Origin: Thermoanaerobaculia bacterium
Lineage (GTDB): Bacteria; Acidobacteriota; Thermoanaerobaculia; UBA5066
Assembly (NCBI GenBank): GCA_963816185.1
Contig: CAWFJJ010000024.1
Coordinates: 96,001-160,000 of the forward strand
DNA: 64,000 nucleotides
Direction: 5' to 3'
The notes under the pieces were generated by a model. The model saw only the letters and a list, made by a program, of their open reading frames with translations. It did no database searches and was not told the origin of the DNA. The position numbers and the translations under genes are program-made. Positions 13,577 to 62,540 of the stretch are shown here, piece after piece (position 1 is the first letter of the stretch; every line of letters starts with the position of its first letter).

Positions 13577-14832
13577 TAGGAGGAATCCTTTGCTCCCTCT
13601 CGTGTCGAGTCGTGGCCCGGCTCATGAGAGGATGACATTTCTTCGAATGGGTGTGCGTTCGACACGCCCTCGAGTTGCACCGAGGCGGCACCCGCCGCCG
13701 TGACTCCACTCACCCCTCTAAGAAGATCTTCATACACCCTCGCGGTTCGCTCCGCCGCGCGCCGCCAAGTGAATTGCGCTGCCCGCTCCCGTCCCCTCTT
13801 TCTAAGAGATTCTCTCTTCTCTTCATCCCCGAGCAGCGCGTTCAGGGCTGTCGCGAGGGACGCGACGTCGTGCGGATCGAAGAACACCGCCGCGTCGCCC
13901 GCAGCCTCGCGGAGGGCGGGGAGGTCCGAGCACGCGACGGGCGTGCCTGCCGCCTGCGCCTCGAGGACCGGCAGCCCGAAGCCTTCCGCAAACGAGGGCA
14001 GAACGAGCGCTCGCGCGCCCGCGAGGAGCGGCGGCACGTCGGCGTCCGGCACGAAGCCGATGACCTTTGCGCCCTCGGGCAGCGTCCGCCCGGGTCCGAC
14101 ACCCGCGAGGACGAGAGAGAGCGATGGATTCGCCGCGCGCACGCGTGGCCACGCGAGAAGCAACCCGTCGAGGTTCTTGTGCGGTTTGTCGTTGCCGAGA
14201 AAGAGAAGATAAGGAAGATAAGAACGAAGATAAGGAGAAGATTCTTTGAAAGGAAGAACGGAAGACTGCACCTCGGCCACACGACGCGCGCCGGCGCTGC
14301 TTTCTTCCCCTTCTAAGAAGAATCTCTCCTCCACTCCATTTGGAATTACTTCGATCTTGAGGTTACGAGAGGGTCCGAAAGCAAGAATTTCCTTCTTCGT
14401 GGCTTCCGACACCGCGATCACTCGAGCGGAGAGGCGCAATGCGCGGCCGATCATCCAGCGCGCGTACACGCGCTTCGCTCTCGCCGCGTGCTCGGGCCGG
14501 GAAAGGTGCATGAGGTCGTGGATCGTGACGACCGTCGCGCGCGGCGGAAAGAGTGGAACGACGTAGTGCGGAGCATGGAAGAGGTCCGGCCGTGCTACAG
14601 AGATCGCCTGCCTGACCGCCACGAGCTCGCCGATCGAGTAATGTGCGGCCGCGCACGTCGTCGTCGTCACGGCTGCGGGCACGAGCGCCTCGTCGCCCGG
14701 AAGAACGAGCGCTTGGAGTTCGAAACGGTCCAGTCCCGCGAGGCCGCCGAGAAGGCCCCGGATATACGTGCCGATCCCGAAGTCGCGCGCCTTGCGCGCG
14801 TCCACGAGGATGAGCTTCCTTCGCTCCGTCAC
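13576..14832 (-). CDS. Glycosyltransferase family 4 carrying repeat-derived internal insert and C-terminal tail
   Basis: GTG start overlapping upstream stop; GIGTY, TIHDL, KPHKN, EGFGLPVLEA, FTW motifs; AT-rich segments at 14197-14330 and 13634-13730. Confidence 0.88.
   Translation of the reverse strand: MTERRKLILVDARKARDFGIGTYIRGLLGGLAGLDRFELQALVLPGDEALVPAAVTTTTCAAAHYSIGELVAVRQAISVARPDLFHAPHYVVPLFPPRATVVTIHDLMHLSRPEHAARAKRVYARWMIGRALRLSARVIAVSEATKKEILAFGPSRNLKIEVIPNGVEERFFLEGEESSAGARRVAEVQSSVLPFKESSPYLRSYLPYLLFLGNDKPHKNLDGLLLAWPRVRAANPSLSLVLAGVGPGRTLPEGAKVIGFVPDADVPPLLAGARALVLPSFAEGFGLPVLEAQAAGTPVACSDLPALREAAGDAAVFFDPHDVASLATALNALLGDEEKRESLRKRGRERAAQFTWRRAAERTARVYEDLLRGVSGVTAAGAASVQLEGVSNAHPFEEMSSSHEPGHDSTREGAKDSS
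13634..13730. repeat. Dispersed palindromic element copy I
   Basis: ACATTTCTTCGAATGGGTG ... CACCCCTCTAAGAAGATCT imperfect inverted termini around small GC hairpins. Confidence 0.65.
14197..14330. repeat. Dispersed element copy II (in frame in GT4)
   Basis: Purine tract + AGATTCTTTGAAAGGAAGAA ... TTCTTCCCCTTCTAAGAAGAATCT. Confidence 0.7.
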
Positions 14833-15914
14833 GAGAGCGCCTCGACGAACAGGGCGCGTGTTTTCGCCGCTGCGGCCGCCCACGTGAAGGTCCGCGCGCG
14901 TCGTGGGCCTTCCTTCGCCGCGTGGCGCCGGAAATCGTCGTCGTCGTTCGCCTTTTCCATCGCGGCCGCGATCTCGGGGACGTTCGCCGGATCGGGCAGG
15001 AGGCCGGCGTCGCCCATCACCTCCGGCAGCGACGACGCCGACGAGCCCACGACGGGCGTGCCCTGAGCCATCGCCTCGAGGGGCGGCAGGCCGAAGCCCT
15101 CGTAAAGGCTCGGATACGCGAAGACGCGCGCGCCTGCGAGCCAGCGCGCTCGCTCGCCGGAGCCGAGATACCCGAGACGCGCGACGCGCGCGGCATGGCG
15201 CGAGCAGGCGAGGCGTTCGGAGAACCCTTCCATCCCCCACCCGTCCCCGCCCGCGAGGACGAGGTCGGGAAAGTCCGGGCGGCGATCCCAGATCGACTCC
15301 ATCGCCGCGACGAGCCGCGCGATGTTCTTGCGCGGCTCGAGCGTTCCCACGTAAAGGACATAGGGCTTGCCACCGTGCGGCGCCGGGCCGGGAGCGGCCG
15401 GAGTCTCGGCCTCGACGCCGTTGTGCACGACGACCGTCTTCGGGGCGGCATCGGGGAACGCGGCGACGAGGTCGCGGCGCGTGGCGTCGGACACGGCGGC
15501 GATGCGCCGCGCGCGGCGGACGGTCGCGCCGATGAAGGGATTGAAACCAAGACGATTCTTCCGCGAGTGCCACTCGGGAAACAGAAACGGCGTGAGGTCG
15601 TGCACGGTCGCGACGCCCGGCAGTGAAGAAAAGAGGGGCAGGATGCCGAGGCTCCCGAAGAACGCGTCGGCGCCGGCTCGCCGGGCGACCCGCGCGGAGT
15701 CGACCTGCAGCCAGACCGTCCCGGGCAGCGGGGGAGAGCCCGCGACCTCCACGCGACCGGCGAGGCGCGCCGGCACGTGGACCCTGCGCGGCGAGAGCAG
15801 GACGAAAGAGTCCGAAGGCGTCTGGTCGAGCCAGGCGGAAAGGAGTCCTTCGAGATAGCGGCCGACGCCGGTCGGACGCTCCTCGAGCGGGCGCGCGTCG
15901 ACGGCGAGGCGCAT
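14829..15914 (-). CDS. Glycosyltransferase family 4
   Basis: MRLAVDAR..TGVGRY, TVHDL, GTLEPRKN, EGFGLPPLEAM; alternative start 15923. Confidence 0.92.
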   Translation of the reverse strand: MRLAVDARPLEERPTGVGRYLEGLLSAWLDQTPSDSFVLLSPRRVHVPARLAGRVEVAGSPPLPGTVWLQVDSARVARRAGADAFFGSLGILPLFSSLPGVATVHDLTPFLFPEWHSRKNRLGFNPFIGATVRRARRIAAVSDATRRDLVAAFPDAAPKTVVVHNGVEAETPAAPGPAPHGGKPYVLYVGTLEPRKNIARLVAAMESIWDRRPDFPDLVLAGGDGWGMEGFSERLACSRHAARVARLGYLGSGERARWLAGARVFAYPSLYEGFGLPPLEAMAQGTPVVGSSASSLPEVMGDAGLLPDPANVPEIAAAMEKANDDDDFRRHAAKEGPRRARTFTWAAAAAKTRALFVEALS

Positions 15915-15922
15915 GCTTTCCA

Positions 15923-15960
15923 TGTTATATTCCGCGGCTCCTCTTCGTTGCGGAGGAGCC
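15923..15960 (+). promoter_or_regulatory. Extended -10 (TGnTATATT) and hairpin covering the yceD ribosome-binding site
   Basis: TGTTATATT at 15923-15931; GGCTCCTC-9nt-GAGGAGCC stem at 15936-15960 overlaps the GGAGG SD. Confidence 0.45.
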
Positions 15961-15967
15961 TTTTCCC

Positions 15968-22228: not shown

Positions 22229-24247
22229 ATGCTCGCGATCTTCGGAATTGGATTCGTCTTCGTCCGTACGCGGAGGCCCTTTCTCGCGCGGTTCCGTCCT
22301 GACGTCGACGAGCTCGTGTCGCCCGAGAGGATCGGCGAGACGCTCGAAACCCTCGCGAAGAGCCCGCACCGGGCGGGCACGCCCGCGAACGCCGCGGTCG
22401 CGGACGAGATCGCGCGCCGGCTCGCGAACGCCGGCCTGAAGACCTGGAGCGACGTACACGAGGTCGAGCTGTGGGAGCCCGAGACGCTCTCGCTCGCGCT
22501 CACGAAGCCCGTATCGCGCGCCTTCGACCTGCACGAGCGCGCCCTCGCCGAGGATCCGGCAACGGCCGTCGCGAAGGACGAGCTGCCTTTTCTCGCGTAC
22601 GCGCCGGATGCCGATCTCGAAGCGCCGGTCGTGTATGCGGGCTTCGGGGGACCCGAGAACTTCGAGGCTCTGCGCAAAACGGGTGTCGACGTGCGCGGAA
22701 AGATCGCCCTCGTCAAGGCGCAGGGCGTCTGCCGCGGGATGAAGATCCTCGCGGCCGAGCGCGCGGGAGTCGCGGGGCTTCTCGTCTACGTCGAGCCGCG
22801 CGACCAGGGCATCGTCAAGCCGCCTTATCCCCAGGGCCCGTCCACGAACCGATGGGCCGTCTCGCGCGGCACGCTCCTGAAGTACTTTCTCCGGCCGGGC
22901 GATCCCGCGCGTGCGAAGGCGATGGGCGTCGACACGCTGCCGAAGATCCCCGCGCTCGCGATCTCGGGCGAAGTCGCCGAGGCGCTGCTTCGCGAAATGG
23001 CGGGCCCGGCGTGCCCGCCGGACTGGAAAGGTCTCCTCGATGCGCCGTACGCGCTCGGTCCGGGGCCGGCGCGCGTGCGGATGACGGTGCGGGGGAAGAG
23101 GGTGCGTGCCTCTCTCCGCAACGTCCTTGCGACGATTCCCGGCGCCGACCCTCTGGCATCGCCCGTGATCGTCGGCAACCATTCCGACGCCTGGGTTTAC
23201 GGAGCGGTCGATCCCTCGTCCGGCACGGCGGCCGTGCTCGAGACGGCTACCGTTCTCGCTCACCTGGCCAGGCACGGCTGGAAGCCTTCGCGTCCCGTCG
23301 TCTTCGCGTTTTTCGACGGCGAAGAGCCCGGGATGCTCGGCTCCACGCTTTGGCTCGAGGAGCGCCTCGCGAGCGGAGACATCCCCGCTCTCGCCTTCGT
23401 CAACGTGGATTCCGCCGTCCGCGCGAACGACCTCTACACGAGCGCGACGCCGGGCCTCCGCGGTCTCCTCGCCGACCTGTTGCGGGTCGTACGCGACCCG
23501 GCCTCGGGCAGGACGCTCGCGGAAACCTCCGGTAAGCCCGATCTGCCGGGCTTCTCCAGCGACACGGCGCCGTTTCTCGGCTTCTCCGCAACACCCGTCG
23601 CCGAGCTGGGGTTCGGCCGCTGGTACGGGAGCTACCACACGCTCTACGACACGGTGACCTGGGTGAAGCGCTTCGGCGATCCCGGCTACGCGCGAAACGC
23701 GACGCTCAGCCGCGTCCTCGCTCTTTACGCGGGAATGCTCGCGACCCCGAGGCTTTTCCCCTTGCGTTTCAGCGAGATCGCCGATTTTGCGGGCCGCAAG
23801 ATTCGTGAAATGCAGGCGCGTCATCCTTCGTCGATCGGATGGATGACGCAGATCGCGCGGCCGCTCTCGAGCCAGCTCGATCTTTTCGAGTCCGAGGCGC
23901 ACGCGTGGGACGCCCGGGTGAACGCCGCGCACCGCCCGGCAAAGGATGCGGGCAGGTTCGATCGGCTCGTCTCGGTCGCGCTCGGCGCGTTCACCGCACC
24001 CGGCGCGCCGTTCGGACGAGCGTGCCGTCTCTGGGGGCCTTCGCTCGAGACGGGGTGCGGCGCCGCGGCGCTCCCGACGCTCGAAGAGGCCGTCGGACGC
24101 AACGACCGCGTGGCCGCGGCGAAGGAGATCGGACGCCTCGCGGGTGCGTTCTCCCGCGCACGCGACGAGCTCGTCCTGGCGAATCGGATGGCCGAAGGCA
24201 GCGGCCGTCCCCCGCGGCCGACGCCCGGGATCTCGCGCAAGCAGTGA
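22229..24247 (+). CDS. M28 family glutamate carboxypeptidase II-like metallopeptidase (PA domain)
   Basis: PHRAGT, GNHSDAW, GAVDPSSG, FDGEE, NVDS, YHTLYDT; true start uncertain (frame open from 22169; GGAGG precedes an in-frame ATT at 22193). Confidence 0.85.
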   Translation: MLAIFGIGFVFVRTRRPFLARFRPDVDELVSPERIGETLETLAKSPHRAGTPANAAVADEIARRLANAGLKTWSDVHEVELWEPETLSLALTKPVSRAFDLHERALAEDPATAVAKDELPFLAYAPDADLEAPVVYAGFGGPENFEALRKTGVDVRGKIALVKAQGVCRGMKILAAERAGVAGLLVYVEPRDQGIVKPPYPQGPSTNRWAVSRGTLLKYFLRPGDPARAKAMGVDTLPKIPALAISGEVAEALLREMAGPACPPDWKGLLDAPYALGPGPARVRMTVRGKRVRASLRNVLATIPGADPLASPVIVGNHSDAWVYGAVDPSSGTAAVLETATVLAHLARHGWKPSRPVVFAFFDGEEPGMLGSTLWLEERLASGDIPALAFVNVDSAVRANDLYTSATPGLRGLLADLLRVVRDPASGRTLAETSGKPDLPGFSSDTAPFLGFSATPVAELGFGRWYGSYHTLYDTVTWVKRFGDPGYARNATLSRVLALYAGMLATPRLFPLRFSEIADFAGRKIREMQARHPSSIGWMTQIARPLSSQLDLFESEAHAWDARVNAAHRPAKDAGRFDRLVSVALGAFTAPGAPFGRACRLWGPSLETGCGAAALPTLEEAVGRNDRVAAAKEIGRLAGAFSRARDELVLANRMAEGSGRPPRPTPGISRKQ

Positions 24248-26226
24248 CGCGCCGCCCGAGCGCCGCCGTCTTTCTGGCTCTGGTCTCGCTCGCGGCCTGT
24301 TCCGGCCGCGACCCGCTCGCGAGGCGCGCGACGCGTCTCGAGTCGCTCGTGGACGCCTCGCGAATGAAGAGAAACGTGGAAACCCTCGCGCGCGTCCCGC
24401 ACCGTGCGGGAAGCCCGGCGCAGCGCGTCGTCGTCGAGACGACCGCTGAATTCCTCCGAGCCGCGGGCCTCGAGCCGGTGATCTCCGAGCACGCCGTGGA
24501 CATTCCCGAGCCCGTCGAAGCCTCGCTCGCGGTCGAAGGGCCTTCCGGGCGCACGTTCGATCTCGCCGAGCGAGAGCTCGCCGGCGATCCATACTCGGCG
24601 ACCGCGCCGGCGGAGACGCCGTTCTTCGCGTGGACGCCCGATGGCGACGTCTCGGCCCGGGTCGTTTATGCGAATCACGGCGCGCGAGAAGACTACGACG
24701 TTCTGCGCCGGGCCGGCGTCTCGGTGAAAGGAGCGATCGTCCTCGCGCGGGCTCAGGGCGTCTGCCGCTCCATGAAGTCCCTTCTCGCGGAGGAAGCGGG
24801 CGCCGCCGGCCTCCTCCTTTATCCCGAGCGCCGCGATCTGGGGATCGTCAAGCCGGATTTTCCAGCCGGGCCGTACCTGAACCGGTGGACCGTGCAGCGC
24901 GGCTCGATGCTGCGCTATTTCCTGCGGCCGGGCGATCCGGATTGCGCGGCATGCCGTGCCCTGCCTCGACTTCGTCCGGCGCTGCCCGCGCTGCCCGTGT
25001 CGGAGAGCGTCGCGAAGGATCTGCTGGGACGCATGGAGGGGCCGCTGGCGCCCGAAGAGTGGATCGGGTGGCTCGGAGTTCCGTATCGACTCGGCGCGAC
25101 CCGGGAGAACGTCCGGCTGCACACGCGTTCGCGTACCGTGAGGCGCGTGCTCCGCAACGTCACCGCGGTGGTCGCGGGGCGTAGGCGCGAGGCCGGCGCC
25201 GTCGTCGTCGGCGCACACACAGACGCCTGGGTGAACGGCGCCGTGGACCCTGTCTCGGGCGCTGCCTCCGTCCTGGAGACCGCGGCGGCCCTTTCGGCCC
25301 TCGCCCGCGACGGCTGGAAGCCGGAACGCGACATTGTCTTCACGCTGTTCGACGGCGAGGAGTACGGGATGCTCGGCTCGACGCTCTGGGTCGAAGAGCG
25401 CCTGGCCGCGCGCGCCCCGCCGATGGCGGCGTTCCTCTTCGTCGACTCTTCCGTGCGTGCCCTCGACTTCATGGCCGACGTTTCGCCGGGCATGAGGGAC
25501 GCGCTCGACGAGGTCCTCGGGCAGATCACCGATCCGGTCTCCGGTCACATTCTTCTGTCCGTGCGCGGGGTGCCTCAGCTTCCCGGCTTCAGCGGCGACA
25601 CGTCGCCCTTCCTCGGTCTCGGCGGCGTCCCGTCGGCTGAGTTCGGGTTCGGGCGGCGCACGTATCCGCAATACCACTCGGCATATGACGATCCGTATCT
25701 GCTCGGTCGGATCCTCGATCCGGGCTATCGCGTCAGCGCGACGCTCGCGCGCATCCTGGCGCTCTTCACGTCGGTGCTTGCGGAGTCGCCCGAGCCGCCG
25801 TGGCGCTTCTCCGAGGTCGCGGCGTTCCTGGACGACGAGCTTTCGAAGCTCGGGAAAGACCCGTCCTCCTCCCGTCTCGCACGCCGGAGCGACCTTTTCG
25901 TGGCGACGGTACGGTTGCGGCTCGCGGCCCGGGAGTGGGAGTCGCTCGACACGGCGCGCCGCCGGCTCGCCGCGGAAAAAGCCGAGCCTCTCCTTCTCGA
26001 CGCCATGGCCGCATTTCACGACGCGGCCGCGCCCGAGTTCGCGCGCCGCAATCTCCTCCTCGGGCCGTCGGCCGAAACCGGCTGCGGCACGGAGACGCTG
26101 CCCGGCCTTCGGCGGGCGCTGCACGGCGACGGCTCGGTCGATGCCGAGGCCGCGCGGCTGGTGCGCGCTCTCACGACGGCGGCCTCGAAGGTGCGCGAGG
26201 CCGTACGAATCGCAGCGGCAAGCTGA
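24244..26226 (+). CDS. Second M28 glutamate carboxypeptidase II-like peptidase, lipoprotein
   Basis: Lipobox LAAC; GAHTDAW, GAVDPVSG, FDGEE, VDS, YHSAYDD; obvious paralog of the upstream gene. Confidence 0.85.
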   Translation: MTRRPSAAVFLALVSLAACSGRDPLARRATRLESLVDASRMKRNVETLARVPHRAGSPAQRVVVETTAEFLRAAGLEPVISEHAVDIPEPVEASLAVEGPSGRTFDLAERELAGDPYSATAPAETPFFAWTPDGDVSARVVYANHGAREDYDVLRRAGVSVKGAIVLARAQGVCRSMKSLLAEEAGAAGLLLYPERRDLGIVKPDFPAGPYLNRWTVQRGSMLRYFLRPGDPDCAACRALPRLRPALPALPVSESVAKDLLGRMEGPLAPEEWIGWLGVPYRLGATRENVRLHTRSRTVRRVLRNVTAVVAGRRREAGAVVVGAHTDAWVNGAVDPVSGAASVLETAAALSALARDGWKPERDIVFTLFDGEEYGMLGSTLWVEERLAARAPPMAAFLFVDSSVRALDFMADVSPGMRDALDEVLGQITDPVSGHILLSVRGVPQLPGFSGDTSPFLGLGGVPSAEFGFGRRTYPQYHSAYDDPYLLGRILDPGYRVSATLARILALFTSVLAESPEPPWRFSEVAAFLDDELSKLGKDPSSSRLARRSDLFVATVRLRLAAREWESLDTARRRLAAEKAEPLLLDAMAAFHDAAAPEFARRNLLLGPSAETGCGTETLPGLRRALHGDGSVDAEAARLVRALTTAASKVREAVRIAAAS

Positions 26227-26235: not shown

Positions 26236-29200
26236 TCACCGGAAGTCGTGGCTGGGAAGATCGGGCAGCGAGGGAAGCGGCCAGAACCGCTCGGCCCTCA
26301 CCGAGACGTTTCCGCCTTCCTTCTGGAGCTTTCCTTCCACGACGAGGCCTCCCGAGCCCACGATGACCGATCGATGCTTCCGGAAGAGGTCGGGGCGCAC
26401 GATGGCTTGCACGATGCCGCTTTCGTCCTCGAGCGACAGGAAGACGAAGCCCTTCGCCGTGCCCGGCCTCTGCCTCACGATGACGGCGCCCGCGGTTTTC
26501 ACCCGTTCGCCCTCGGGCACGTTCCGGAGCTCCCCGGCCGACAGGATCGACCGCGCCGCGAGCGCCGGACGCAGATGCTCGAGGAGGTGCGGGCCAGCCG
26601 TCATGTCCGTCGCGCGATAGTCGGCGGTCGTCTCCTGAATGGCTGACATCTCGGGAAGAGGAGATTTCTGCGAAGAGGAAGAAAGAGGGAGAGATTCATA
26701 GAGGGTGCCGAGGGGATGGGAGATCTCCGCGACTTGCCAGAGGGCCGTGCGGCGGGAGACGCCGAGGGACAAGAGGGAACCGGAGTAGGCGATCAAGGTC
26801 ATCTCGTCGGGACGGAGCCGGCAGCGGCGCTGAAAGTCCGCCACATCCCGGAACGGTCCTCCGCGCGTTCTTTCGGCTTCGATGGCTTCTCCCGTCGTCT
26901 GCTTCAGCCCCTTGATGAAACGCATGCCGAGACGCACGGAGAGAGGACCATGATTTGGTTGCTTATATGCGTCGGCCGCTGATGCGGCCGACGACAGGGG
27001 CGAATCTGTCCCCGGCGGGCCGCTTTCAAGGGCGCGCTTCGCGCGCCGTGCAGCGGTCGAAGACCCTTGACAGCGCTCCGCCGTCGGACGCCTGGCCGCC
27101 GGGATACCCCGCTCCTTCGCGCGTGAACTCGCTTCGCTCAGACAGCACGCGCGTGCGTCGCGAGGTACCCCGGCGTCCCGCGCCCTATTCATATTCGAAG
27201 AAAAATCTTCTTCTTTCTCTTCCTCTCTCTCTACCCGGCAATCCCATCCCGAAAAGTTCACGTCGATCGGCAGGACCGCAGTGCCCTTGCGCTGGATGTC
27301 CTTCAGGATCGTCGCGGGGTGGTAGAAGCCCATCGGCCACGCGTTCAGGAGGCACGCCGTGAACGCCGCCGGGTGGTGCGCCTTCAGCCACGCGCTCGCG
27401 TACGCGATGAGCGCGAAGCTGGCCGCGTGCGACTCGGGGAAGCCGTAGAGCGCGAACGACGTGATGGACTTGACGATCTGGTCCTGCGCGGGCCCCGTGA
27501 TGCCTTTTTTCGCCATGCCCGAGCGCAGCCGCTCTTCAATCGCGCCCATGCGCTCCTCGGAGCGCTTGAAGCCCATCGCGCGGCGCAGCTCTTCCGCCTC
27601 GCCGCCCGTGAAGCCCGCGGCCACCATCGCGATCCTGAGGAGCTGCTCCTGGAAGAGCGGTACGCCGAGCGTGCGCTTCAGGATCGGCTCGAGGCACGGG
27701 TGCGGATACTCGACCGGCGCCTTGCCCTGCCGCCGGTCGAAGAACGGGTGCACCATCCCGCCCACGATCGGCCCCGGCCGGATGATCGCGACCTGCACGA
27801 CGATGTCGTAGAAGACCTTCGGCGCGTGGCGCGGGCAGCGAAGCCATCTGCGCGCGGCTCTCGACCTGGAAGAGGCCGATCGTGTCGGCTGCGCGGAGCA
27901 GCTCGTACACCTTCGGGTCGTCCGCGGGCAGGTGCGCGAGGTCCACGTCCACGCCCTCGTGCGCCTTGATCAGGGGCAGCATCTTCTCGATCGCGCCCAG
28001 CATCCCGAGGCCGAGGAGATCCACCTTCACGATGCCGAGGTCCGCGCAGTCGTCCTTGTCCCACTGGATGACGACGCGCCCTTCCATCGCCGCGGGCTCG
28101 AGCGGCACGACCTCGGACAGCTTTCCCATCGCCACGACCATCCCGCCCGAGTGCTGTCCGAGGTGGCGCGGCAGGCTCTGGACGCGCATGAAAAGCTTCC
28201 CGAAGTGCGCGACGCGCGGGTGTGCGGGGTCGAAGCCGGCGGCCGCCATCTCCTTCGCGAGATCGGCCGCGCCGTCGCGGTACTCGCCGAAGCTCCACGC
28301 CCCGAGGTGCTTCGCGATCGTGTCCACCTGCTCCGGCGAGAAGCCCAGGGCCTTCGCCATCTCGCGCGCGGCCGAACGGTCGCGGTACGTGATGACGTTC
28401 GCCGTCATCGCCGCGCCGTCGGCGCCGTACGTTTTGTAGACGTGCTGGATCACCTTCTCGCGCGGGTCGCCCGAGGGCAGGTCGAGGTCGATGTCGGGCC
28501 ACTCCCCGCGCTCCTCCGAGAGGAAGCGCTCGAAGAGAAGCTCCATCTTCACGGGATCCACCGCCGTGATCGAGAGCGCGTAGCACACGGCGCTGTTCGC
28601 GGCCGAGCCGCGCCCCTGCACGAGGATGTGCTCCTTCTTGCAGAAGTTCACGATGTCCCAGACGATGAGGAAGTAGCCCGCGAGGTCCAGCTTCGCGATG
28701 AGGTCGAGCTCCCGCTGGATCTGCGCCTGCGCCTTTCCCGTGAGCGGCCGGAAGCGCGAGCGCGCGCCTTCCCACGTGACGTGCCTGAGGAACGACGACG
28801 GCGTCTCGCCCGGTGGCAGCGGGTACGCGGGGAAGCGGTAGCCGAGGTCCGCGAGCGTGAAGGAAAGGCGCCCGCGCGAGCTCGGCGCTCCTTTCGAGGA
28901 CGCCCGGCAGATCCGCGAAGAGGGCCTCCATGTCGGCCGCGGACTTCAGGTGGCGCTCGCGCCCCGCGTGCAGCTTCGTGCCGGCCGCGTCGAGGTGCGT
29001 GTGGTGGCGGATGCACGTGAGAGCGTCGAAGAGGTCCTTGTCCTTCCGCGCCGCGTAGCGCGCGCCGTTCGTCGCGAGGACCGGCAGGCGCGCGGCGAGA
29101 GCGAGATCGAGGAGCGCGCGATTCAGGTGCTCCTCCGCGCGCAGGAAGTGGCGCTGCAGCTCCACGTGAAGGCGCCCCGGGAAGAGCGCCGTGAGGCGGT

Positions 29201-29963
29201 CCAGCTCGCGGCGCGCCGCGTCGAAACCGCCCGTATCGCGCGACGTCAGCGCGCGCGTCACGACGCTCTCCTCGCCGCCCGTCAGGACGTGCAGCCCTTC
29301 CGCGTGCGCGGCGACCTCCTCCCACGTCGCGGCCGCCTGCCCCTTCGGCTTCCCTGCGGCGGCGGCGGTGAGAAGCGAGCAGAGGTTCCGGTAGCCCTTC
29401 TGGTTCTCGGCGAGCAGCGTCAGACGGGGATAAGAAATTCCTGCTGGGAGGGGAGGGGGAACGATTCCGAGAGGACCGGGAAGATTTTCTTCGAATGAGT
29501 GTGTGGGCGATTCGCCGCTTCTGCCCTCTTCCTCTTTACCTTTCAAAGAAATCTTGTTGCTCCATCCCCCGACGAGAGCCGGATGCGGAGCAAGAACGAC
29601 CTCCGCCCCGACGAGCGCTTTCACCCCCGCCGCCTTCGCTGCCTTCCAGAAGCGCGGGGCGCCGGAGAGGCCGTTCGTGTCCACGAGCGCCATCGCGGGA
29701 AGGCCGAGCGCCGCCGCACGCGCGACGAGGTCTTCCGGCAGAGACGACCCGTTCAGGAACGAGAACGCCGAGGCGACGCGCAGCTCGGCATACGGCCTCG
29801 CGCGCTTTGCGGGAGCGGGCGGCCGCGCGAACGCCCGCACGCGCGCTTTCTCCTTGCGTGCGCCGGGAGACGTGTACGCGCCGGGCTGCCCGGGTTTGAC
29901 GATCGGCCCGAGCATGTCGCGTCCCGGCGGCCCGCCGTGCTTCCCGCTGCCGCGCCCGTCCAT
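26236..29963 (-). CDS. dnaE2: Error-prone DNA polymerase DnaE2/ImuC; two apparent frameshifts (~28872, ~27834) and two in-frame repeat inserts
   Basis: YAEL..SAFSFL.G.S.PE PHP start, QGRGSAANSAVCY, PDIDLD, QHSGG, QWDKDD, GFPESHA, RQRPGTAKG, C-terminal SHDFR; three ORF pieces join after removing one base in each of two short homopolymers. Confidence 0.92.
26945..27232 (+). repeat. Dispersed element copy III with hairpin cassette (in frame in dnaE2)
   Basis: TATATGCGTCGGCCGC-TGAT-GCGGCCGACG; TCAAGGG-31nt-CCCTTGA; terminus ATTCGAAGAAAAATCT + pyrimidine tract. Confidence 0.85.
29430..29560. repeat. Dispersed element copy IV (in frame in dnaE2 PHP domain)
   Basis: AAGATTTTCTTCGAATGAG ... CCTTTCAAAGAAATCTT inverted pair. 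Confidence 0.7.
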
Positions 29964-33845: not shown

Positions 33846-33870
33846 GCCTGCTGTGCCCCGCTTTTCATCA

Positions 33871-34225
33871 GGATGTTTTTCTTAGAAGGTGAATATCCCC
33901 GGCTCCAACACCCTCAGCGCGTGAATGCGGACAACCGGCCTGAAAACGCAACGGCGAAGATTTCTTTCTTCTGATATGCGGCGGCTGCAGTTGCAGCCCT
34001 GGCCGGCCTGATTGGACGCGGGGGGTCCGGGGGCGCCCGAAGGCAAGCCCCCGGAGAGCGCGCGCAAGCGCGCCGCGCAGCGGTCTTCGATCCTTGACAT
34101 CGGTCATTCGGGAAATACACGTTCCCCACACTCAGCGCCCGAATGCGGACAAATGACCGGAGAACAAAGTGGCATGCTCTCTTTCCTTTTCCTCTCTTTC
34201 TAAGAAAATTTTCTTTCTTTCTTCC
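33871..34225 (+). repeat. Dispersed element copy V with hairpin cassette (imuA 3' end / imuB leader)
   Basis: TTTTTCTTAGAAGGTGAA ... CTTTCTAAGAAAATT; ATATGCGGCGGCTGC; CCTTGACATCGGTCATTCGGGAAATAC identical to copy IX. Confidence 0.85.
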
Positions 34226-37290: not shown

Positions 37291-38087
37291 GGAAGCTCCA
37301 GGTCGAGCGTGAGATGAAGAAGGGCCGTGAGGTCTCCTTCCGTCGAGACGACTCCCTTCTTGTAGCCTTCGGGGCTGCCCGGCGGCGCATAGAGTCCGGG
37401 GATCGTCCGCGGAGCCACGAGCGCGAGCGTCACGGGATGCGACCCGCGAAACGTCGCGTCCACCGGCACGATCGCGGTCGCGCGCGCGAGCTCCGTCGCG
37501 ATCACCTTCCCGATCTGAACGTGAAGAACCTCTCGTGCCGGAGCCGCGAGAAGCGGAATGCGGCCTACGAACTGCCCGATGACGGTGTTCAGGGCCGCGC
37601 CGAGGATCGGCCCCACGGCGTTCGTGCGCTCGACGAAGAGGCACGCGTGGAGGTTCACATGGCTCGACACTTTCACGGCGCCGCCGAAGAACGGATTCCC
37701 GTTCTGATCGGGCGGGAGATCCGCCGCGGCGATCGTCTGTCCTGAGGACGCCGCGAACGGAAGGTGCGCGGAGGCGAGCGCGGAGCTCTCGCCGGAAGCG
37801 GCCGGGTCGGGGTCCTCGAGCTGAAGGACGAGCGAGAGATCCGTCGCCTTCACGCCTTCGCCGGGCCAGCCGTTGTGCTTCACGTCGATCGAGACGAAGG
37901 AGACGGTGAGAGTTGGGGCGGCGGGAGACGAGGATCTTCTTGCTTTCGGAGCGAGCCGAGAGGGCGAGCCCTTAGCCGGGCGGCTGATCGCAGAGGGTTT
38001 CGGTGGTTTTCTCTTAGAAAGTGAATGGGACCCGGGGTTTCGCATCGGGCCTCCTTCCGGCTTCGGCGGCGCCAGCGATTCTTTCAC
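37287..38087 (-). CDS. Hypothetical protein; start uncertain because the N-terminus lies in a repeat element
   Basis: Open frame coupled to the downstream gene (overlapping stop/start); no recognisable motif. Confidence 0.5.
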   Translation of the reverse strand: MKESLAPPKPEGGPMRNPGSHSLSKRKPPKPSAISRPAKGSPSRLAPKARRSSSPAAPTLTVSFVSIDVKHNGWPGEGVKATDLSLVLQLEDPDPAASGESSALASAHLPFAASSGQTIAAADLPPDQNGNPFFGGAVKVSSHVNLHACLFVERTNAVGPILGAALNTVIGQFVGRIPLLAAPAREVLHVQIGKVIATELARATAIVPVDATFRGSHPVTLALVAPRTIPGLYAPPGSPEGYKKGVVSTEGDLTALLHLTLDLELP

Positions 38088-38180
38088 CTTCTAAGAAAAA
38101 TCAACCGTCCCGTTGCTTCGGTGTAGCAAGTCGCGCTGCGGCGGCACCGGCTGCGTCATTCACCCTTCTAAGAAGATCCA
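38006..38180. repeat. Dispersed element copy VI
   Basis: TTTTCTCTTAGAAAGTGAA ... TTCACCTTCTAAGAAAAA plus a second TTCACCCTTCTAAGAAGAT at 38159-38177. Confidence 0.78.
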
Positions 38181-40955: not shown

Positions 40956-41188
40956 AAAGATCGAAGACTTTGCTTCGGATGAGGATTCGGATCTCGGATT
41001 TTCTTAGAAAGGTGGAGGAAGCAATGCGCGACAAGGACGGCACCGGCGGCAGGGCGGCGGCGGTCCCCGTTCACCTTCTAAGAAAAGCGCCATCGCGCGC
41101 TGCGAGAGGTCTGCTCGTGCGTGCCAGCGGAGCCCGAGGGGTCTTTCTCTTTCTAAGCAGAATCTCTCTCCTCTTCTTCGTCTTCTTC
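40956..41188. repeat. Dispersed element copy VII (nested pairs of termini)
   Basis: Inner TTTTCTTAGAAAGGTGGA ... TTCACCTTCTAAGAAAA; outer AGACTTTGCTTCGGATGAG ... CTCTTTCTAAGCAGAATCT. Confidence 0.8.
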
Positions 41189-43096: not shown

Positions 43097-43159
43097 ACGC
43101 AGTCACGGACTTTCCGTCGCGTTTCGGAACATCCAGGGACCCGATGAGGGCGATCGCGA

Positions 43160-44041: not shown

Positions 44042-44105
44042 CCGGCTAGCCTACTTCACCCCGCGACGCCCGGACCCGGGCTCGCGTCGTTGCCTCCTTG
44101 GTTGG

Positions 44106-44672: not shown

Positions 44673-44700
44673 CGGCCGGGTGCTTCGCTAGACTCCGGAC

Positions 44701-47130: not shown

Positions 47131-48179
47131 TGCTCACGCTGCCGCCGATGGACCTCGGGCTCGTGGTGCGCAGCCACGGCTGGTACGACTTGCCTCCATT
47201 CGAATGGGACGCGAAAGAAAAGACCCTGGGATTGATTTTCTTAGAAGGAGAATGCCCCGTACGAGTCGAGGTGGCGGAGCAGCCGGGCGGACTGGTTGCT
47301 CAGGCTCGGGCCATCGCGCCTTCGGCGCGGGAGACCGATTTCTCATATGCGGCGGCTGCTGTGCAGCCGCCGATAGCAGCAAATCTGTCCTCGGATGGCG
47401 GGAGTCAAGGGCGCGCTGCGCGCGCCGCGAAGCGGTCGAAGACCCTTGACACCCGCCTTCCGAGGAAGATCTCTTTCTCTTTCAAAGCAAATCTCTCTTC
47501 GGACGTTCCATCCGAGGCCTCGGTTCGTCGTGCGCTGGAACGGGTCCTCGATCTGAAAGCGGATCTTTCTTCTTTCCACTCCCTCTGCGCCGGGGACCCG
47601 CGCTTCGCGTGGGTCGCCCGGCGCGGGGCGGGGCGGATCCTGCGCGCGCCGACTCTGTTCGAGGACGCCGTAAAGGTCCTCGCGACGACGAACTGCACCT
47701 GGGGTCTGACGAAGCTCATGGTGAACAATCTGATCGAACGCTTCGATCGGGGCGGGGCATTTCCGGATGCGCCCTTCGTCGCGGGCCTTTCCGCGCGCTC
47801 TCTCGCCGCTGCGAAATGGGGTTACCGTGCGCCTTATCTCACCGCGTTCGCGCGGCGCGTCGCCTCGGGAAAGCTGGATCTCGCGCGCTGGGAGGATCCG
47901 GACCTTCCCGACGAGGAGGTCGAGAAGGAGATCCGCGCGGAGAAAGGCTTCGGCCCTTATGCCGCCGACACGCTGGGGCGGCTTCTCGGGCGGCACCGCA
48001 AGCTGGGCCTCGACGCCTGGTCTCGCAAGAAGGTCGCGACCCTGAGGTTTCGGGGCCGCGCCGTGAAGGACGCGCGCGTCGCGCGCTTCTACGCGTCGTT
48101 CGGACCGCACGCGGGCCTCGCGTTCTGGCTCGACATGACGCACGACTGGCACGAGGAGAAGGAGACCGTGTGGCCCTGA
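47127..48179 (+). CDS. AlkA/Ogg-like HhH-GPD DNA glycosylase with in-frame repeat insert
   Basis: SHGW.DLPPF, GRILRAPTLFED.VK....TNC.W, GYRA, KGFGPYAA HhH; ~65 aa insert at ~47307-47510. Confidence 0.78.
   Translation: MMLTLPPMDLGLVVRSHGWYDLPPFEWDAKEKTLGLIFLEGECPVRVEVAEQPGGLVAQARAIAPSARETDFSYAAAAVQPPIAANLSSDGGSQGRAARAAKRSKTLDTRLPRKISFSFKANLSSDVPSEASVRRALERVLDLKADLSSFHSLCAGDPRFAWVARRGAGRILRAPTLFEDAVKVLATTNCTWGLTKLMVNNLIERFDRGGAFPDAPFVAGLSARSLAAAKWGYRAPYLTAFARRVASGKLDLARWEDPDLPDEEVEKEIRAEKGFGPYAADTLGRLLGRHRKLGLDAWSRKKVATLRFRGRAVKDARVARFYASFGPHAGLAFWLDMTHDWHEEKETVWP
47231..47500 (+). repeat. Dispersed element copy VIII with hairpin cassette (in frame in DNA glycosylase)
   Basis: GATTTTCTTAGAAGGAGAA; CATATGCGGCGGCTGC-TGT-GCAGCCGCCG; GTCAAGGG-31nt-CCCTTGAC; CTTTCAAAGCAAATCTCTCTTC. 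Confidence 0.88.
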
Positions 48180-54746: not shown

Positions 54747-56172
54747 CGTTGTCCTCCGGCGCCGGCTTCGCCGTCGAGCGCGACGAGCTGATACCAGCCG
54801 TCCGTCGCGGGGAAGGCGCCGGGCACGCCGTGCCGCCCTTCAGGATCCAGACCTCGGCGGCGACGCGCGGCCGGGGGCGAGCGGCGCGCGTGGGGATGCC
54901 CTGGTCGAGGCCGGCCATGGCCCTCTCGGAGAGGCGAAGCAGGAAAGCCGTCCGCCGGCCCTTCGGGTCCAGCCCCGCGTAGTCCGCGGACGCGCCGTCC
55001 GCGCGGCGTTTCCAATCGAGGCCGCGCGCTCCGGCGGGGAGGAGCGCAGGCGCGAAGGGCGGGATCTCGTCCGCGGCGAGAGCCGGGATCTCCGGCCACG
55101 CTCCGCTCTTCCTCTCTGGTCCGTGATGGCGTCGACCGAGACGAGGAGCGCCTGGAAAATGGTCTGGTCCGTCCCCGCGAGGACCGAGGTCGCCGCGGGC
55201 GCGCCGGAGCGGTCGAGGGTCTTCACGCGCACAGCCCCGGCGACGAGAAGATCGCCAGCGCCGCGCCGACCCACGCGGCTTCCCGGGCGGCGCTCGGCGG
55301 GCGGACGACGCGTCCCGGCGCGTCCACGAGGTGCATCATCGCGCCCGCCCCGCGCCGAACCGGACCCGCAGTGTGGCGCTCGTGACCTCGGACGGCGGCT
55401 CCGCCGGGTCGGACGGGTATTCGGTCAGCCTCCTGCTGCGATCCGTGGCGGGCACGTCGGCGGCGAGGAGAGCCGCGCCGTTCCCCGCCGCCGCGACGAC
55501 TTCCTTCCAGCCCGCGCGGCCTTCGAAGTTCGTGTCGGAGAACGTCACCGCCGCGACGCCTTCCTTCGAGACGATCGCCTCGAGGTCCAGCGTCAGTCGC
55601 GCGGTGGGGAGGTCCGCGACTCCGGGCGCGAACTCGAGCGCGCTCCTGACGATGGTGAGCGCGACGCGCGCGCCTCCAACGGTGAGAACGAGGCCCGGAA
55701 GAAAGCGCGCGGCGAGGTCGTCCCGCATCTTCGCGAGCGCCTCCCCCCGCGGCGCGCTCGTCAGGCTCGAATCCGACAGCGCCTTCTGCGTCGGGATCTC
55801 CGCGAAATCGATCACGTGCGTCACGTCGATGCCCCCCGCGCGCGGCGACAGCCGCGTCCAGCGGTTCACGGAGAAATTGCCCATGGGATGGGAGAGAGAT
55901 TTTGCTGAAGAGAAGAGAAGAAAGAGGAAGACAAATACAGAGAAAGATTTTCTTAGAAGGGAAGAGGGGAACGGGGCTGTTCCTGATGCAGCCGCCGCGA
56001 GAAGAGAAACGCTTCCATTTCTTATATGCGGCGGCTGCTGATGCGGCCGCCGATAGATGGAAATCTGTTCCCGAATGACCGATGTCAAGGGTCGGCGACC
56101 GCTGCGCGGCGCGCGAAGCGCGCCCTTGACATCGGTCATTCGGGAAATACGGTCCCGCTCTCTCTTATTCAT
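54743..56172 (-). CDS. Secreted protein with HPMGNF N-terminal domain typical of Ni/Co transporter-associated proteins; C-terminal half broken by frameshifts
   Basis: HPMGNFSVNR, D.AEIPT, GWKEVV, S.RLT.YP.D; ATG overlaps TPR gene stop; N-terminus reads through a repeat element. Confidence 0.6.
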
Positions 56173-56235
56173 TAGCAGAAATCTCTTTCTTCGTCTCTCC
56201 GTCTATCTCTTTCTCGATCTCCTCCTTCATCCTTC
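55893..56235 (+). repeat. Dispersed element copy IX with hairpin cassette (perfect 24-bp stem)
   Basis: AGATTTTCTTAGAAGGGAAG; TATATGCGGCGGCTGC-TGAT-GCGGCCGCCG; 56068-56091 / 56123-56146 perfect inverted repeat; TTCATTAGCAGAAATCTCT. Confidence 0.9.
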
Positions 56236-57430: not shown

Positions 57431-59071
57431 TTACTTGACGCTCGCGGGCTGGATCTTCACGAGGTCGTCGTGATCGCGCGCGATGCGGACGCGCTCCGCG
57501 AACTCCTCGTCGGAGATGCCCTCGGGGAAACCCTTCACGTTGGGGTCGCGGATCGCCTTGACCTGAGCGTTGTGCCCGGGCTGCGCCGGACCGGCGTGGA
57601 AGGCCGCGAAGCCGCTCGTGGGCGACCACATGAAGGGGAAGAAGTACCGGCAGCCGCGCTCCGGGAAGTCCACGCCGTCGCCGAGGAGATTGTTCGGCGA
57701 GCCGTTGAACCCCCCGCCCTGAAGCACTCCCGCCACGACGCGCAGCTCGATGTCGACGACGTCGTCGCAGGGCCGGCGGCCGTTCGGGAAGCCCGCGAGG
57801 TCGCTGCCGAGATAACCGAGCCGGCTCGCGCTGGAGAAAGGCGTCGGCGTCACGGCCGTGTTCAGCCGCAGCTCGTCCGCGTATACCTCGCCCGGATGCG
57901 TATTGATCGGGACATGGAACGGGTTTCCGGGCCGGAACCCGCGGAAGAGTGCGAGCTCGATGTCCGTGCGGGGGTTAGGAGGAACGTTGATGTTGAAGAG
58001 CACGTTCATATAGGTCGCGAGAATCGGAAAGAGCTCGCCCGGGGTCGACGCGTCGCCCTTGAACTGCGCCTCCGCCGAGGGCGGCTGCGAGTTCCAGAAG
58101 TCCTTGCGGCCGACGCCGACGAGGACCTCGTTCACGAGCGGATTGCCGAGGCGCGAACCTGAACGTACGCGCCGCTGTTCGTGACCGAGCCGTCGGCGTT
58201 GATCGTGCGCGAGGCGGGAATGCTGACCGAAGCCCAGCCTCCGATCACGGCGACCGAGTTCGCAGGGTCGCCCACCTGGAAGCCGACGGACGTGAGCTGC
58301 GCGATGGGAACCTGGAGCGCCGTCGCGAGGACCGTGTATCCGAAGAGGGTGTCCCGGCCGTTACCCGTGGCGCCGACACCCACGCCGGGCCGCCCGAGAC
58401 CGGCGCCGGTCTCGAGGTTGATGCCGTCAAAGACCATACCGAGGTCCACGAAGAAGGGATCCTGGCGGGGTCCGGCGAAGACGGAGATCTTGCCGTCCGC
58501 GCTCTTCTGGATGCCGTTCGGAATGTTCACGTAATCCGGGAACGTCTTGGATCCGATGTTCGGTGGGAAGACGGGCTGATCCGTGAGGATGCGCGTGATC
58601 TGGCCCGGCGGAGGGGTTCGCCGCGGGCCCGGTGATCTTGTCCAGGCTGTAGGTCTGGACGACGAGGAGGTTCGGATCCGTGATCGACGCGACGGGGGGC
58701 ACCGCATACAGGAACGTCGAGGGCTGCTTGTACGTCGTCTTGAACGTGAACCGGAAGGTCACGTCCTCCACCCCGTCGCCATTGTTGTCGATCTTGATGT
58801 CGTACCAGGCGCCGTCCTGAAAGCCCGCGTAGTTCGGGCCGCCCTGCGGCTCGATGAGCCCGTAGCGGCACGCGATGAGGTTCACCATCGAGGGGTCGTT
58901 CGGGTCGCGGAACATGTAGAAGTCCGTGTCGTCGAGGCTGGGGTTCTTGGACGTGAAAGGGGCCTCGTTGTGGCTGGACGCAAGCGCTCCGGCGGGCGCG
59001 AGGAGCGCGGCGGCCGCGAGAATTGCGGCCGAGACCAGGCGGCGAAGGCGCAGTTCTCCCGTTTTGGACAT
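57431..59071 (-). CDS. DUF4331 family secreted protein; two apparent frameshifts (~58610, ~58152)
   Basis: ASSHNEAP, D.TDFYMF, FAGPRQDPFFVDL, RLGNPLVNE, AGFPNGRRP.DDVVDIEL; AGGAG RBS. Confidence 0.85.
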
Positions 59072-59245: not shown

Positions 59246-59344
59246 GGAAGCGCAAGGGGCCCGGCGGCCCTCCTGGTCTTCAAAACCAGCGTGCCCGTTC
59301 CGAGAGGGGCGGCGGGTGGGTTCGACCCCCACACGCTTCCGCCA
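59246..59344 (+). tRNA. selC: tRNA-Sec (anticodon UCA)
   Basis: GGAAGCG/CGCTTCC acceptor stem with G discriminator and encoded CCA, 6-bp D stem with 4-nt loop, CTGGT-CTTCAAA-ACCAG anticodon arm, long variable arm, GTGGG-TTCGACC-CCCAC T arm. Confidence 0.93.
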
Positions 59345-60750: not shown

Positions 60751-60999
60751 TCGTTCGAAACTCCTTGTTGAAGGTCGTCGATAGCCTATCAGCGCGCGGG
60801 TGCCGACTGAAAAGCGGCCCGGCGGGGAACGGGCCACGGAAATCGAAAAAATGTGAAATACGCCGCTAGTGTTCCGAAGCATACAGTGATGGGGTGGATT
60901 CGTCTAGGCGATAAAAGTGTCTATATGCCTCAATCATTTTCTGAATACGCGTGCCTTTGTTTGCGGGAGATGACATGATTCCGGCCTCGGGAGGCCCGC

Positions 61000-61940
61000 A
61001 TGATTCACGACAGCATCTCGGCACCATCGGAAACACCCCGTAGTCCGCATCAACCGGCTCGCGCCCGAGGGCACGACGATTACGTCAAGTGCGAGGCCTT
61101 CAACCCGATGAGCTCGGTGAAGGACCGGCTGGCGATCGCGATGATCGAGGACGCCGAGCGGCGCGGCGTATTGAAACCGGGCCAGACCGTCGTCGAGCCG
61201 ACGTCGGGAAACACCGGTATCGCGCTCGCGATGGTCTGCGCGGTCAAGGGGTACCCGTTCGTCGCCATCATGGCCGAGTCGTTCTCGGTGGAGCGCCGGA
61301 AGCTGATGAAGGGGCTCGGAGCGAAGGTGATCCTCGATCCCGGCGCCGAGCGCGGCTCCGGAATGGTGGAGATGGCGAACGAGCTCGCCGCGAAGCACGG
61401 CTGGTTCCTGCCGCAGCAATTCGAGAACCCTTCGAACCCGGAGTACCACCGCAGACGACCGGCCCGGAGATCCTCCGCGACTTCGCGGGCCGCCGGCTCG
61501 ACTACTTCGTCTCGGGCATCGGAACGGGTGGGACGCTGACAGGCGCCGGCGAGATGCTCAAGCTGGCGCGGCCCAACATCCGGATCGTCTTCACCGAGCC
61601 GGCCGCCGCGCCGATGGTGACGCAGGGCGCATGGGCGCCGCACAAGATCCAGGGCTGGACGACGGACTTCATTCCGGCGGTCTTCAACCGGAAGATCTAC
61701 GACGAGGTCGTCCTCGTGACCGACGTCGAGGCGCGCGACGCCGCGCGCGAACTCGCACAGAAGGAGGGGATCTTCTGCGGGATCTCGTCCGGAGGGACGT
61801 TCGAGGCGGCGCGGAAAGTTGCCGAGAAGGCCCCGAAGGGCTCGGTCCTCCTCGCGATGCTGCCCGACACGGGCGAGCGCTACCTCTCGACGATCCTCTT
61901 CGAGGGGATCAGCGAAGGAAGTGACGAGATTCCGGCCTGA
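61000..61940 (+). CDS. cysK: Cysteine synthase A; several apparent frameshifts
   Basis: [63 protein letters not shown]. Confidence 0.9.
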
Positions 61941-62127
61941 GCGCTCTCCCTCCGTCCCCAGGATCTCGTCGCGATCTTCCGCCGGCGGTTCGCGGAGGAT
62001 CCGCGTGCCGCGTTTCGCGACTGGTACGTGCTGCAGGAGCCCTGCGGGACGAGCGTGAGAGGCGGGAAGAGTTGGAGGAGACGGCCCGTGCGCTCGCGAG
62101 CGACCCGTGGAACAGGCGGGAACGCTG

Positions 62128-62540
62128 ATTATTTGTTCGAAAGGGAAGAGGCGGGGTTCCTGCGCAACCTCGCGGTGCTCTTCGGCTCGCGCGGTCCTGC
62201 CGAAAGTCTCGGCCTCTCGCTCTCCTTCTGTTGGAAGAATCTCTCGACGCCGCTGGCCCCGGCAATGAGCTGCGAGGCGCTGGGCGAGAACCTGGCATAA
62301 CCGGGACAGCGCGCTCCAGAAGTCGCGCGCTCGGCGGACGATCTCGGGGAGGCTCTCGCCTCCTACGAGCGCGCCTGACGGTGCGCGACGCCTCGCGCCG
62401 CGTCGCGCGGGAGGTGACGCTTCACGCCAAGGAATTGTTCTTCGAAAGCTGGCCAGGCGGAGCCCCGCCGGCGGGCCGAACACCTCGGGCCGCCATTGCC
62501 TCCTTCGAAGAATCTCTCTCTTCGGTCTGAGAAGAACTTC
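62128..62540. repeat. Degenerate element termini (copy X) within a broken hypothetical gene
   Basis: ATTTGTTCGAAAGGGAAGAG, TTGGAAGAATCTCTC, TTGTTCTTCGAAAG, CCTTCGAAGAATCTCTCTCTTC. Confidence 0.45.

Follow-up and report, generated by a model that had tools for sequence, protein, structure and literature searches.

The motif and its loci in the window

The DNA analysed here, referred to as the window, is a stretch of 64,000 nucleotides (nt) from a Thermoanaerobaculia bacterium (assembly GCA_963816185.1, contig CAWFJJ010000024.1, positions 96,001 to 160,000 of the forward strand), a member of a group of common, nearly uncultured bacteria of soil and sediment. Among its genes are glycosyltransferase (GT) genes, an imuA-imuB-dnaE2 cassette and genes for an S9 peptidase and a DNA glycosylase, and in or close to these recurs a short AT-rich word, TTCTWAGAA, in surroundings of 64–72% GC (68% for the genome). 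The original prediction, made from the sequence letters alone, had taken this word for the inverted terminus of a repeat family with about ten loci in the window. Our analysis tentatively supports a related reading, i.e. that the word is the conserved end of an old, hairpin-forming repeat family of this bacterial clade.

The word is strongly over-represented. Exact copies number nine, where 0.07 are expected and at most one was seen in 100 dinucleotide shuffles, and Markov models of order 1–4 built from the window agree in expecting 0.04–0.37 sites; a model of order 5 expects 7.1, the 6-mer counts on which it draws coming largely from the motif copies themselves. All nine lie where the original prediction had placed them, as TTCTAAGAA at 14311, 34198, 38089, 38166 and 41076 and as TTCTTAGAA at 33879, 41001, 47238 and 55950. 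When one mismatch is allowed, 22 matches are found (2.49 expected, at most 6 in shuffles), including the near copies that had been named with them, at 13716, 13800, 38011 and 41151, and the variants TTCTTCGAA, TTCAAAGAA and TTCGAAGAA. With copies set in one orientation, TTCTWAGAA is the core of an asymmetric site of ~20–25 nt, gaTTTTCTTAGAAgGtGAA, often followed by GAGGGG, and the aligned window copies uphold the extended consensus proposed earlier. We refer to the site as written as F and to its reverse complement as R. With a terminus profile built from 13 window sites, which very diverged ends escape, 14 window termini score at E <= 0.02 and weaker ones lie at 27194, 29487, 29542 and 62504–62512; the one-mismatch matches at 8105 and 39165 are without profile support and probably due to chance. 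As predicted, the termini define ten loci:

E1, 13639..13808: F-type variant TTCTTCGAA at 13639, R-type CTCTAAGAA at 13716 and R-type TTCTAAGAG at 13800, with spacings of 77 and 84 nt; at the 3' end of a GT4 glycosyltransferase open reading frame (ORF), upstream of the next GT gene; translations EDLLRG and ESLRKRG.
E2, 14242..14319: F-type variant TTCTTTGAA at 14242 and R-type TTCTAAGAA at 14311; inside a GT4 gene, with the in-frame minus-strand translation ...ERFFLEGEE...; the PDB alignment begins after E2.
E3, 26955..27202: module B (a ~140-nt repeat, see below) at 26955-27094 and R-type variant TTCGAAGAA at 27194; in frame within dnaE2; the orthologous loci L001 and L096 carry the exact 17-mer defined below at this position.
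E4, 29487..29550: F-type TTCTTCGAA at 29487, paired with R-type TTCAAAGAA at 29542; within the PHP-domain part of dnaE2, in frame and translated ..NKISLKGKEEEGRSGESPTHSFEENLPGP..; orthologous copy in L049.
E5, 33879..34206: F at 33879 (34 nt from the imuB start), module B at 33964-34124, R at 34198 in the last imuA codons.
E6, 38011..38174: F (CTCTTAGAA) at 38011, R at 38089 and R at 38166, with spacings of 78 and 77 nt; intergenic, upstream of a chalcone-isomerase-like gene.
E7, 41001..41159: F at 41001, R at 41076 and R variant TTCTAAGCA at 41151; covers the likely start (ATG 41024, 23 nt after F) of an S9 peptidase with an ORF of 690 codons, and its N-terminal part, which resembles a signal peptide; kept in the orthologous loci L073 and L119.
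E8, 47238..47489: F at 47238 (translated FLEGE), module B at 47336-47471 and R variant TTCAAAGCA at 47481; all within an HhH-GPD DNA glycosylase gene, 47127-48179.
E9, 55950..56183: F at 55950 after a long purine tract, module B at 56014-56154 and a degenerate R-like end at ~56168-56183, seen by eye and missed by the profile, which overlaps the 3' end of a TPR gene.
E10, 62438..62512: F variant TTCTTCGAA at 62438 with R variant TTCGAAGAA at 62504; in the intergenic DNA that separates a PALP-enzyme gene from a sigma-54 activator gene; a weak profile match (E 1.9) and the least certain of the ten loci.

Spread across the clade

Species-representative genomes were scanned for the exact 17-mer TTTTCTTAGAAGGTGAA, which is present at no fewer than 120 loci (at least 120; those listed are numbered L001 and so on). 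Among the matches listed, 95 of 120 loci lie in 28 assemblies titled Thermoanaerobaculia, Acidobacteriota or Acidobacteria, and the remaining 25 are single matches, 23 of them in AT-rich taxa and two in other GC-rich taxa. The window's own genome is not among these loci; the top matches are orthologous loci with 77–92% identity. The family thus reaches far beyond the window, and across the window and the related loci termini occur at 0.08–0.22 per kb. The hundreds of loci per genome that the original prediction supposed, should the density of the window hold, would be an extrapolation from these figures. The consensus of 79 termini that lie outside the 17-mer selection reads g..gattTTCTTaGAAgG..aa.ggg, with the exact core in 34 of them. 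As the assemblies of the clade comprise SPAdes-type and MEGAHIT-type contigs as well as long-read bins, i.e. the products of several different assemblers, the motif is not a sequencing artefact. Furthermore, the listed loci form 16 orthologous groups, which argues that many units are older than the split of these species.

No description of the motif, of a Thermoanaerobaculia repeat or of a miniature inverted repeat of Acidobacteria was found in a full-text literature search (subscription journals lie outside its coverage), and matches to an 11-mer were unrelated primers; so far as searched, the family is therefore unreported in print. Rfam returned only a selenocysteine tRNA and chance-level matches, both at the gathering score on the window and ten loci and at E <= 1 on E9, and blastn against plasmid sequences gave no match to a full unit.

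Facing pairs of termini

The spatial arrangement of the termini is strictly one-sided. In the window and the 95 listed related loci (316,484 bases with 176 profile termini), neighbours at most 600 nt apart are convergent, i.e. F followed by R, in 53 cases, tandem in 12 and divergent in none. Their spacing clusters at 62–91 nt, with further groups at 110–130, 153–185 and 226–319 nt, and the units are 52–330 nt long. A control with regular expressions found an R-like 9-mer 20–330 nt downstream of 53 of the 96 exact copies, upstream of 0 of 61 and at 0 of the 25 loci from other taxa, and on folding of whole units the termini pair into stems, as in the pair 38011-38097, which is predicted to fold at -32.5 kcal/mol with its termini paired. 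Census, control and stems together argue that the unit is a facing pair and not a single word, so that the inverted, non-random orientation originally proposed holds. When 27 small units are aligned, ~24 nt are conserved at each of the two ends and none mid-unit. Outer purine tracts on the left and pyrimidine tracts on the right, which had been described as part of the element, are indeed enriched, a strict outer purine tract accompanying 26 of 96 exact copies (random 70-mers: 0.6%) and an outer TCCGAAGA-type word 20 of 96 (2.9%), but they are optional and absent from most copies.

Conserved inverted repeats around short variable segments, positioned upstream of or within genes, would also be the signature of invertons, in which the pairs would serve as the inverted repeats of switches flipped by a site-specific recombinase. 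Yet in 21 of 21 orthologous pairs the interior aligned better forward than reverse-complemented, no recombinase is found among 187 ORFs scanned in the window and related loci, and spacings of 62–91 nt are very short for recombinase synapsis, all of which makes such switches very improbable.

A fixed geometry with arbitrary DNA in between is what might be expected of an architectural or regulatory DNA-binding protein that bridges two inverted AT-rich sites ~75 bp apart, with selection keeping those sites that are tolerated. Such a protein could explain why AT-rich sites are kept in a 68% GC genome at orthologous places, native codons included. A regulon is unlikely, however, since the neighbours share no function (tRNA synthetases, the end of a ribosomal operon, folC, peptidases and repair genes), and there is no excess of signals around the elements in 33000-48000, where 0 promoters and 15 terminators (10.7 +/- 3.9 expected) are predicted. 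In addition, no candidate protein was found in the material scanned, and it is difficult to imagine selection for whole units inserted into essential genes, so that we consider a bridging protein distinctly unlikely.

Extra DNA in genes and its translation

The units are by no means confined to intergenic DNA: 15 of the 53 pairs lie inside coding-like ORFs and 22 overlap ORF ends, i.e. 37 of 53 are in or overlap ORFs, with the other 16 being intergenic. The ORF calls in the loci are crude (stop-to-stop, with a filter on GC content at third codon positions), and these counts of context, like those of reading frame, include some antisense ORFs. In several enzymes the units coincide with additional protein sequence. 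At E3, 104 residues of DnaE2 take the place of 11 (between 821 and 833) in Escherichia coli Pol III alpha, i.e. ~93 extra amino acids; at E4 there are 48 residues compared with 23 in Mycobacterium tuberculosis DnaE1, i.e. ~25 extra; and lysyl-tRNA synthetase (LysRS) is longer by ~45 amino acids in six species relative to E. coli LysU. The motif site is used in several reading frames, and in frame 0, where an R-type copy would contain TAA, this codon is replaced by GAA, CAA or AAA in 4 of 4 copies, with E4 as a worked example. Such stop-removing variants at termini in stop-giving frames argue that the inserts are translated.

The dnaE2 gene of the window (26236-29963, minus strand), part of the imuA-imuB-dnaE2 cassette, is itself readable only across three frames, with single-base insertions or deletions relative to the orthologue L001 at 27832 and 28871, and is thus either a pseudogene or affected by long-read assembly errors.

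As an anecdotal observation, several element loci are in or beside DNA-repair or replication genes, namely dnaE2 (twice), imuA/imuB and the glycosylase gene in the window, and genes for LigD, UvrD and Lhr in the related loci L008, L009 and L045.

Some genes start just after an F site, e.g. those for the S9 peptidase, a folC-like gene (L027 group) and a GH3 gene (L077 group), which raises the question of whether F acts as a signal for translation initiation or ribosome interaction, with an AU-rich leader and GGTGA as a Shine–Dalgarno-like element; the R site may also bear some likeness to the 3' end of 16S rRNA. Starts of coding-like ORFs do follow 20 of 125 F sites compared with 65 of 625 random positions, but this enrichment is small (16% versus 10%), the majority of copies lie within genes or form pairs where genes end, and the R partner would be left unexplained; this role is hardly probable.

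A terminator or promoter role of the elements is not supported either, neither kind of signal being in excess around those in 33000-48000.

Termini in native codons

A different situation is found where termini coincide with positions that are also filled in homologues without the unit. The F site of the glycosylase gene is read as FLEGE, with F and L invariant and E nearly so among 34 homologues that are at least 65% identical. In 29 homologues of 31–63% identity, unrelated residues of a variable loop take up these columns with no gaps, and the short form of the glycosylase matches a solved Ogg structure residue for residue from position 67. This gapless filling and the match to Ogg argue that the F site sits at native positions. 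Downstream of FLEGE, close homologues vary by a segment of 0–60 residues between the translations of an F-type (SSKGE) and an R-type (PFKENLSS) terminus; this segment is absent from all distant homologues and looks like one old insertion with later losses. Likewise, the GT4 stretches with the copies at 13716 and 13800 align one to one with helices of PimA and thus consist of native codons, and the exact 17-mer in LysRS (IHLLRK) aligns to native residues of LysU, with the extra DNA preceding the 17-mer.

These observations bring into play a signal of the uptake-sequence type, which, beside a protein-binding signal, the original prediction had named as its alternative, and where biased uptake and recombination, i.e. 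molecular drive, would write the motif into the genome, including tolerant coding positions, and pairs would be secondary. The uptake sequences of Neisseriaceae and Pasteurellaceae, according to PMC2817400, are ORF-borne and occupy poorly conserved residues. In the present case termini in native codons cause no length change at poorly conserved positions (the FLEGE loop and the C-terminal helices of the GTs), several reading frames are used, the site is kept across 28 assemblies, several loci are in DNA-repair genes (an anecdotal point), unique interiors are to be expected if the sites alone matter, and a density of 0.08–0.22 termini per kb is of a kind with such signals, yet several-fold below the 1,471, 765 and 1,892 uptake sequences per genome given in the same paper. 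On the other hand, neither strict convergent pairing nor a preferred spacing nor the complete lack of divergent pairs is predicted by an uptake signal, and whole units represent extra DNA in dnaE2 and LysRS. Thus, the glycosylase loop and the GT helices show the native coding positions, poorly conserved residues and unchanged length of an uptake sequence, whereas the dnaE2 and LysRS copies do not, and for the family as a whole we regard an uptake signal as unlikely.

A more far-reaching reading would be a signal that is specific to one clade of Thermoanaerobaculia and maintained by the host, rather than selfish debris, in which a conserved protein or uptake machinery reads two convergent AT-rich sites ~75 bp apart that were written in by point changes in tolerant loops of native proteins (the FLEGE loop, the GT helices) as well as by insertion. 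This seems unlikely; if it were true, peptides set by a DNA word would be found in hundreds of the clade's proteins.

Module B and local changes within units

Module B is present in the window in four copies of ~140 nt, all in one orientation and all nested between F and R (26955-27094, 33964-34124, 47336-47471 and 56014-56154). It holds two hairpins and a TTGACA word and has no match in Rfam. Three orthologues of E5 (L013, L042 and L017) have kept F and a decayed R and are missing the insert of ~210 nt; L029 has the insert, inside which its contig ends. The orthologues of E8 in L104 and L118 are also without module B. Judged from these comparisons, module B looks like a young, conventional small repeat, similar to MITEs (miniature inverted-repeat transposable elements), that lands in old units. 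Presence or absence at orthologous sites is therefore seen mainly for this nested repeat; for the small units, the segment of 0–60 residues in the glycosylase is the only case.

At E5, ~55 nt of the imuA 3' end are present twice, once on each side of module B (33908-33958 and 34125-34180, identified by eye), the only duplication noticed around any unit. The copy joined to imuA is the more diverged from orthologues, which recalls elements that carry a replacement gene end.

Two further observations concern the edges and the number of units. Runs of the hexamer GGATTC/GAATCC abut termini in L026 (~2090-2135), L105 (~170-230), L061 and L073 and at 40975-41000 of the window, which suggests slippage-prone sequence at the element edges. 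In L034, at ~1800-2020, a unit of ~129 nt that ends in F is tandemly duplicated relative to the orthologues L011 and L028, so that arrays can grow by local duplication.

Origin and maintenance of the units

In our reading, to which we assign a probability of about 45%, the motif is the conserved end of an ancient, vertically inherited and clade-wide family of foldback, i.e. hairpin-forming, repeats, whose termini are kept by a sequence-specific process. The units would have entered as insertions in an ancestor of these Thermoanaerobaculia and would have been inherited vertically since. A trans-acting enzyme recognizing the termini or the stem they form may have made or moved the units, much as the doublets of REP (repetitive extragenic palindromic) sequences known as REPINs depend on a single-copy REP-associated tyrosine transposase (RAYT). 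A sequence-specific process would then have held the termini AT-rich in a 68% GC genome while the interiors drifted. Within genes, only in-frame copies would survive, with stop codons mutated away, and would be visible as translated loops such as FLEGE, HLLRK, SPSKK and FKENLSS, and the old units would finally have received younger repeats such as module B. An indirect argument for constraint on the termini is that AT-rich ends can still be recognized in hundreds of old copies in a 68% GC genome, with interiors that are GC-rich and unrelated to each other. In 46 ordered pairs of orthologues, identity is 82.5% for R ends that had not been selected for, 72% for interiors and 69–77% for flanks.

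Several results weigh against this reading. The extra conservation of the termini just quoted appears modest in these alignments, and the recurrence of the exact 17-mer at orthologous sites, being inflated by the selection of loci with this very 17-mer, was not used as a test. Whereas the original prediction had assumed GC-rich hairpins between the termini, the interiors fold no more stably than shuffled sequence (mean z -0.39, with 4 of 41 below -2), and this part of it has to be amended. When the 53 interiors were compared with each other, matches were found only among orthologues or copies of module B, although a single amplified master element would leave related interiors; nor are the interiors copies of the flanks, since comparison with neighbouring DNA gave only chance matches of 11–16 nt, for 12 of 53. 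No target-site duplication was visible by eye beside the termini in 45 listed units, and symmetric forms that could represent an 'empty site' or a 'circle junction' had three and one marginal matches, respectively, compared with 70 F and 63 R. The Pfam scan of 71 window ORFs and 116 ORFs of related loci (~0.3 Mb together) found no transposase, no RAYT/Y1 transposase domain and no recombinase. Finally, as far as alignment to homologues tells, some termini are not insertions, i.e. FLEGE in the glycosylase and the copies at 13716 and 13800 in the GT helices.

Site-specific integration at palindromic att sites is not supported either, as symmetric forms are absent. In the same Pfam scan, the neighbours of the elements were ordinary housekeeping genes.

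Whatever its origin, the family is common to at least 28 species-level genomes, and it breaks short-read assemblies, as in L029, which ends in the repeat. It adds peptides to essential enzymes (DnaE2, LysRS and DNA glycosylase) and appears to attract younger repeats. It could be used in the annotation of Thermoanaerobaculia genomes and as a lineage marker, and it bears on how short AT-rich words last in GC-rich genomes. If the termini were indeed kept by a dedicated enzyme or uptake system, this would represent a new long-lived partnership of repeat and host outside Proteobacteria and at the same time a natural experiment on the influence that signals at the DNA level have on protein sequence.

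Further observations in the window

Four features of the window stand apart from the repeat family:

38865-40955, plus strand: a protein of 696 residues with GreA/GreB domains only in its C-terminal part, an unusually long GreA-like fusion.
23163-23370 and 25199-25406: a direct repeat of 208 nt with 71% identity, between adjacent M28 peptidase paralogues.
59246-59344, plus strand: a selenocysteine tRNA gene with anticodon TCA, on which Rfam and ARAGORN agree.
57431-59071, minus strand: a DUF4331 gene split over three frames; the PALP-enzyme gene at 61000-62300, plus strand, also looks split, and these appear to be frameshifts of the same kind as in dnaE2.

Comparison with known systems

The paired family is not a clean member of any known one, given its unique interiors, the transposase not found in ~0.3 Mb, the target-site duplication not seen in 45 listed units, its non-extragenic location and termini in native codons. 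Integron attC sites have conserved inverted ends and a variable centre and are 60–140 bp long, and they occur in cassette arrays beside an integrase, with centres that are paired. In contrast, the units described here are dispersed and inside genes, and their centres are unstructured.

Classic bacterial MITEs such as Correia and ERIC elements are short and non-coding, with terminal inverted repeats and many copies. Our units are also short, end in inverted repeats and have no transposase gene of their own, and module B, with its four copies of ~140 nt and its presence or absence between orthologues, comes close to a MITE. The TTCTWAGAA units themselves differ in having no shared interior; no target-site duplication was visible in 45 listed units, and no parent insertion sequence was found in the 64 kb of the window and 252 kb of loci. 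The proposal that the motif represents MITE- or REPIN-like termini is thus upheld as far as inverted-repeat unit ends and doublet geometry are concerned, but not with respect to a shared interior, target duplication, a transposase (187 ORFs) or an extragenic location.

With uptake sequences, as portrayed in PMC2817400, the family shares a short motif that is repeated through the genome and those of relatives and is present in ORFs in several frames. It differs by its obligate convergent pairs, 60–330 nt apart, which can bring extra DNA.

Rickettsia palindromic elements (RPEs) provide a precedent for repeats within genes, with 53 of 526 elements located in protein-coding genes of R. bellii, according to PMC1458961. 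Just as in the present case, these are short palindromic repeats that are in frame in protein-coding genes and are translated. To our knowledge, no transposase is known for RPEs either. RPE families have conserved interiors, whereas here only the termini are common between units; moreover, the host belongs to a free-living, GC-rich acidobacterial clade, and some of the termini are in native codons.

The closest geometrical parallels are found with REPINs. According to PMC3116915, REP doublets have next-neighbour peaks at 71 and 110 bp, are inverted around a spacer with a predicted hairpin, and are extragenic. Unlike these, 37 of 53 pairs here are in or overlap coding-like ORFs, the palindrome of 9 nt is too short to form a REP-like stem-loop by itself, and no RAYT was seen in ~0.3 Mb. 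The site is also not known to resemble the REP sequences of Pseudomonas or E. coli. Nevertheless, both systems consist of two short conserved sequences inverted around a spacer, which form over-represented doublets and tandem clusters, and both have a preferred spacing, i.e. 71 and 110 bp for the REP doublets and 62–91 and 110–130 nt here. Both, judging from bioRxiv 2021.07.10.451892, also share long vertical persistence.

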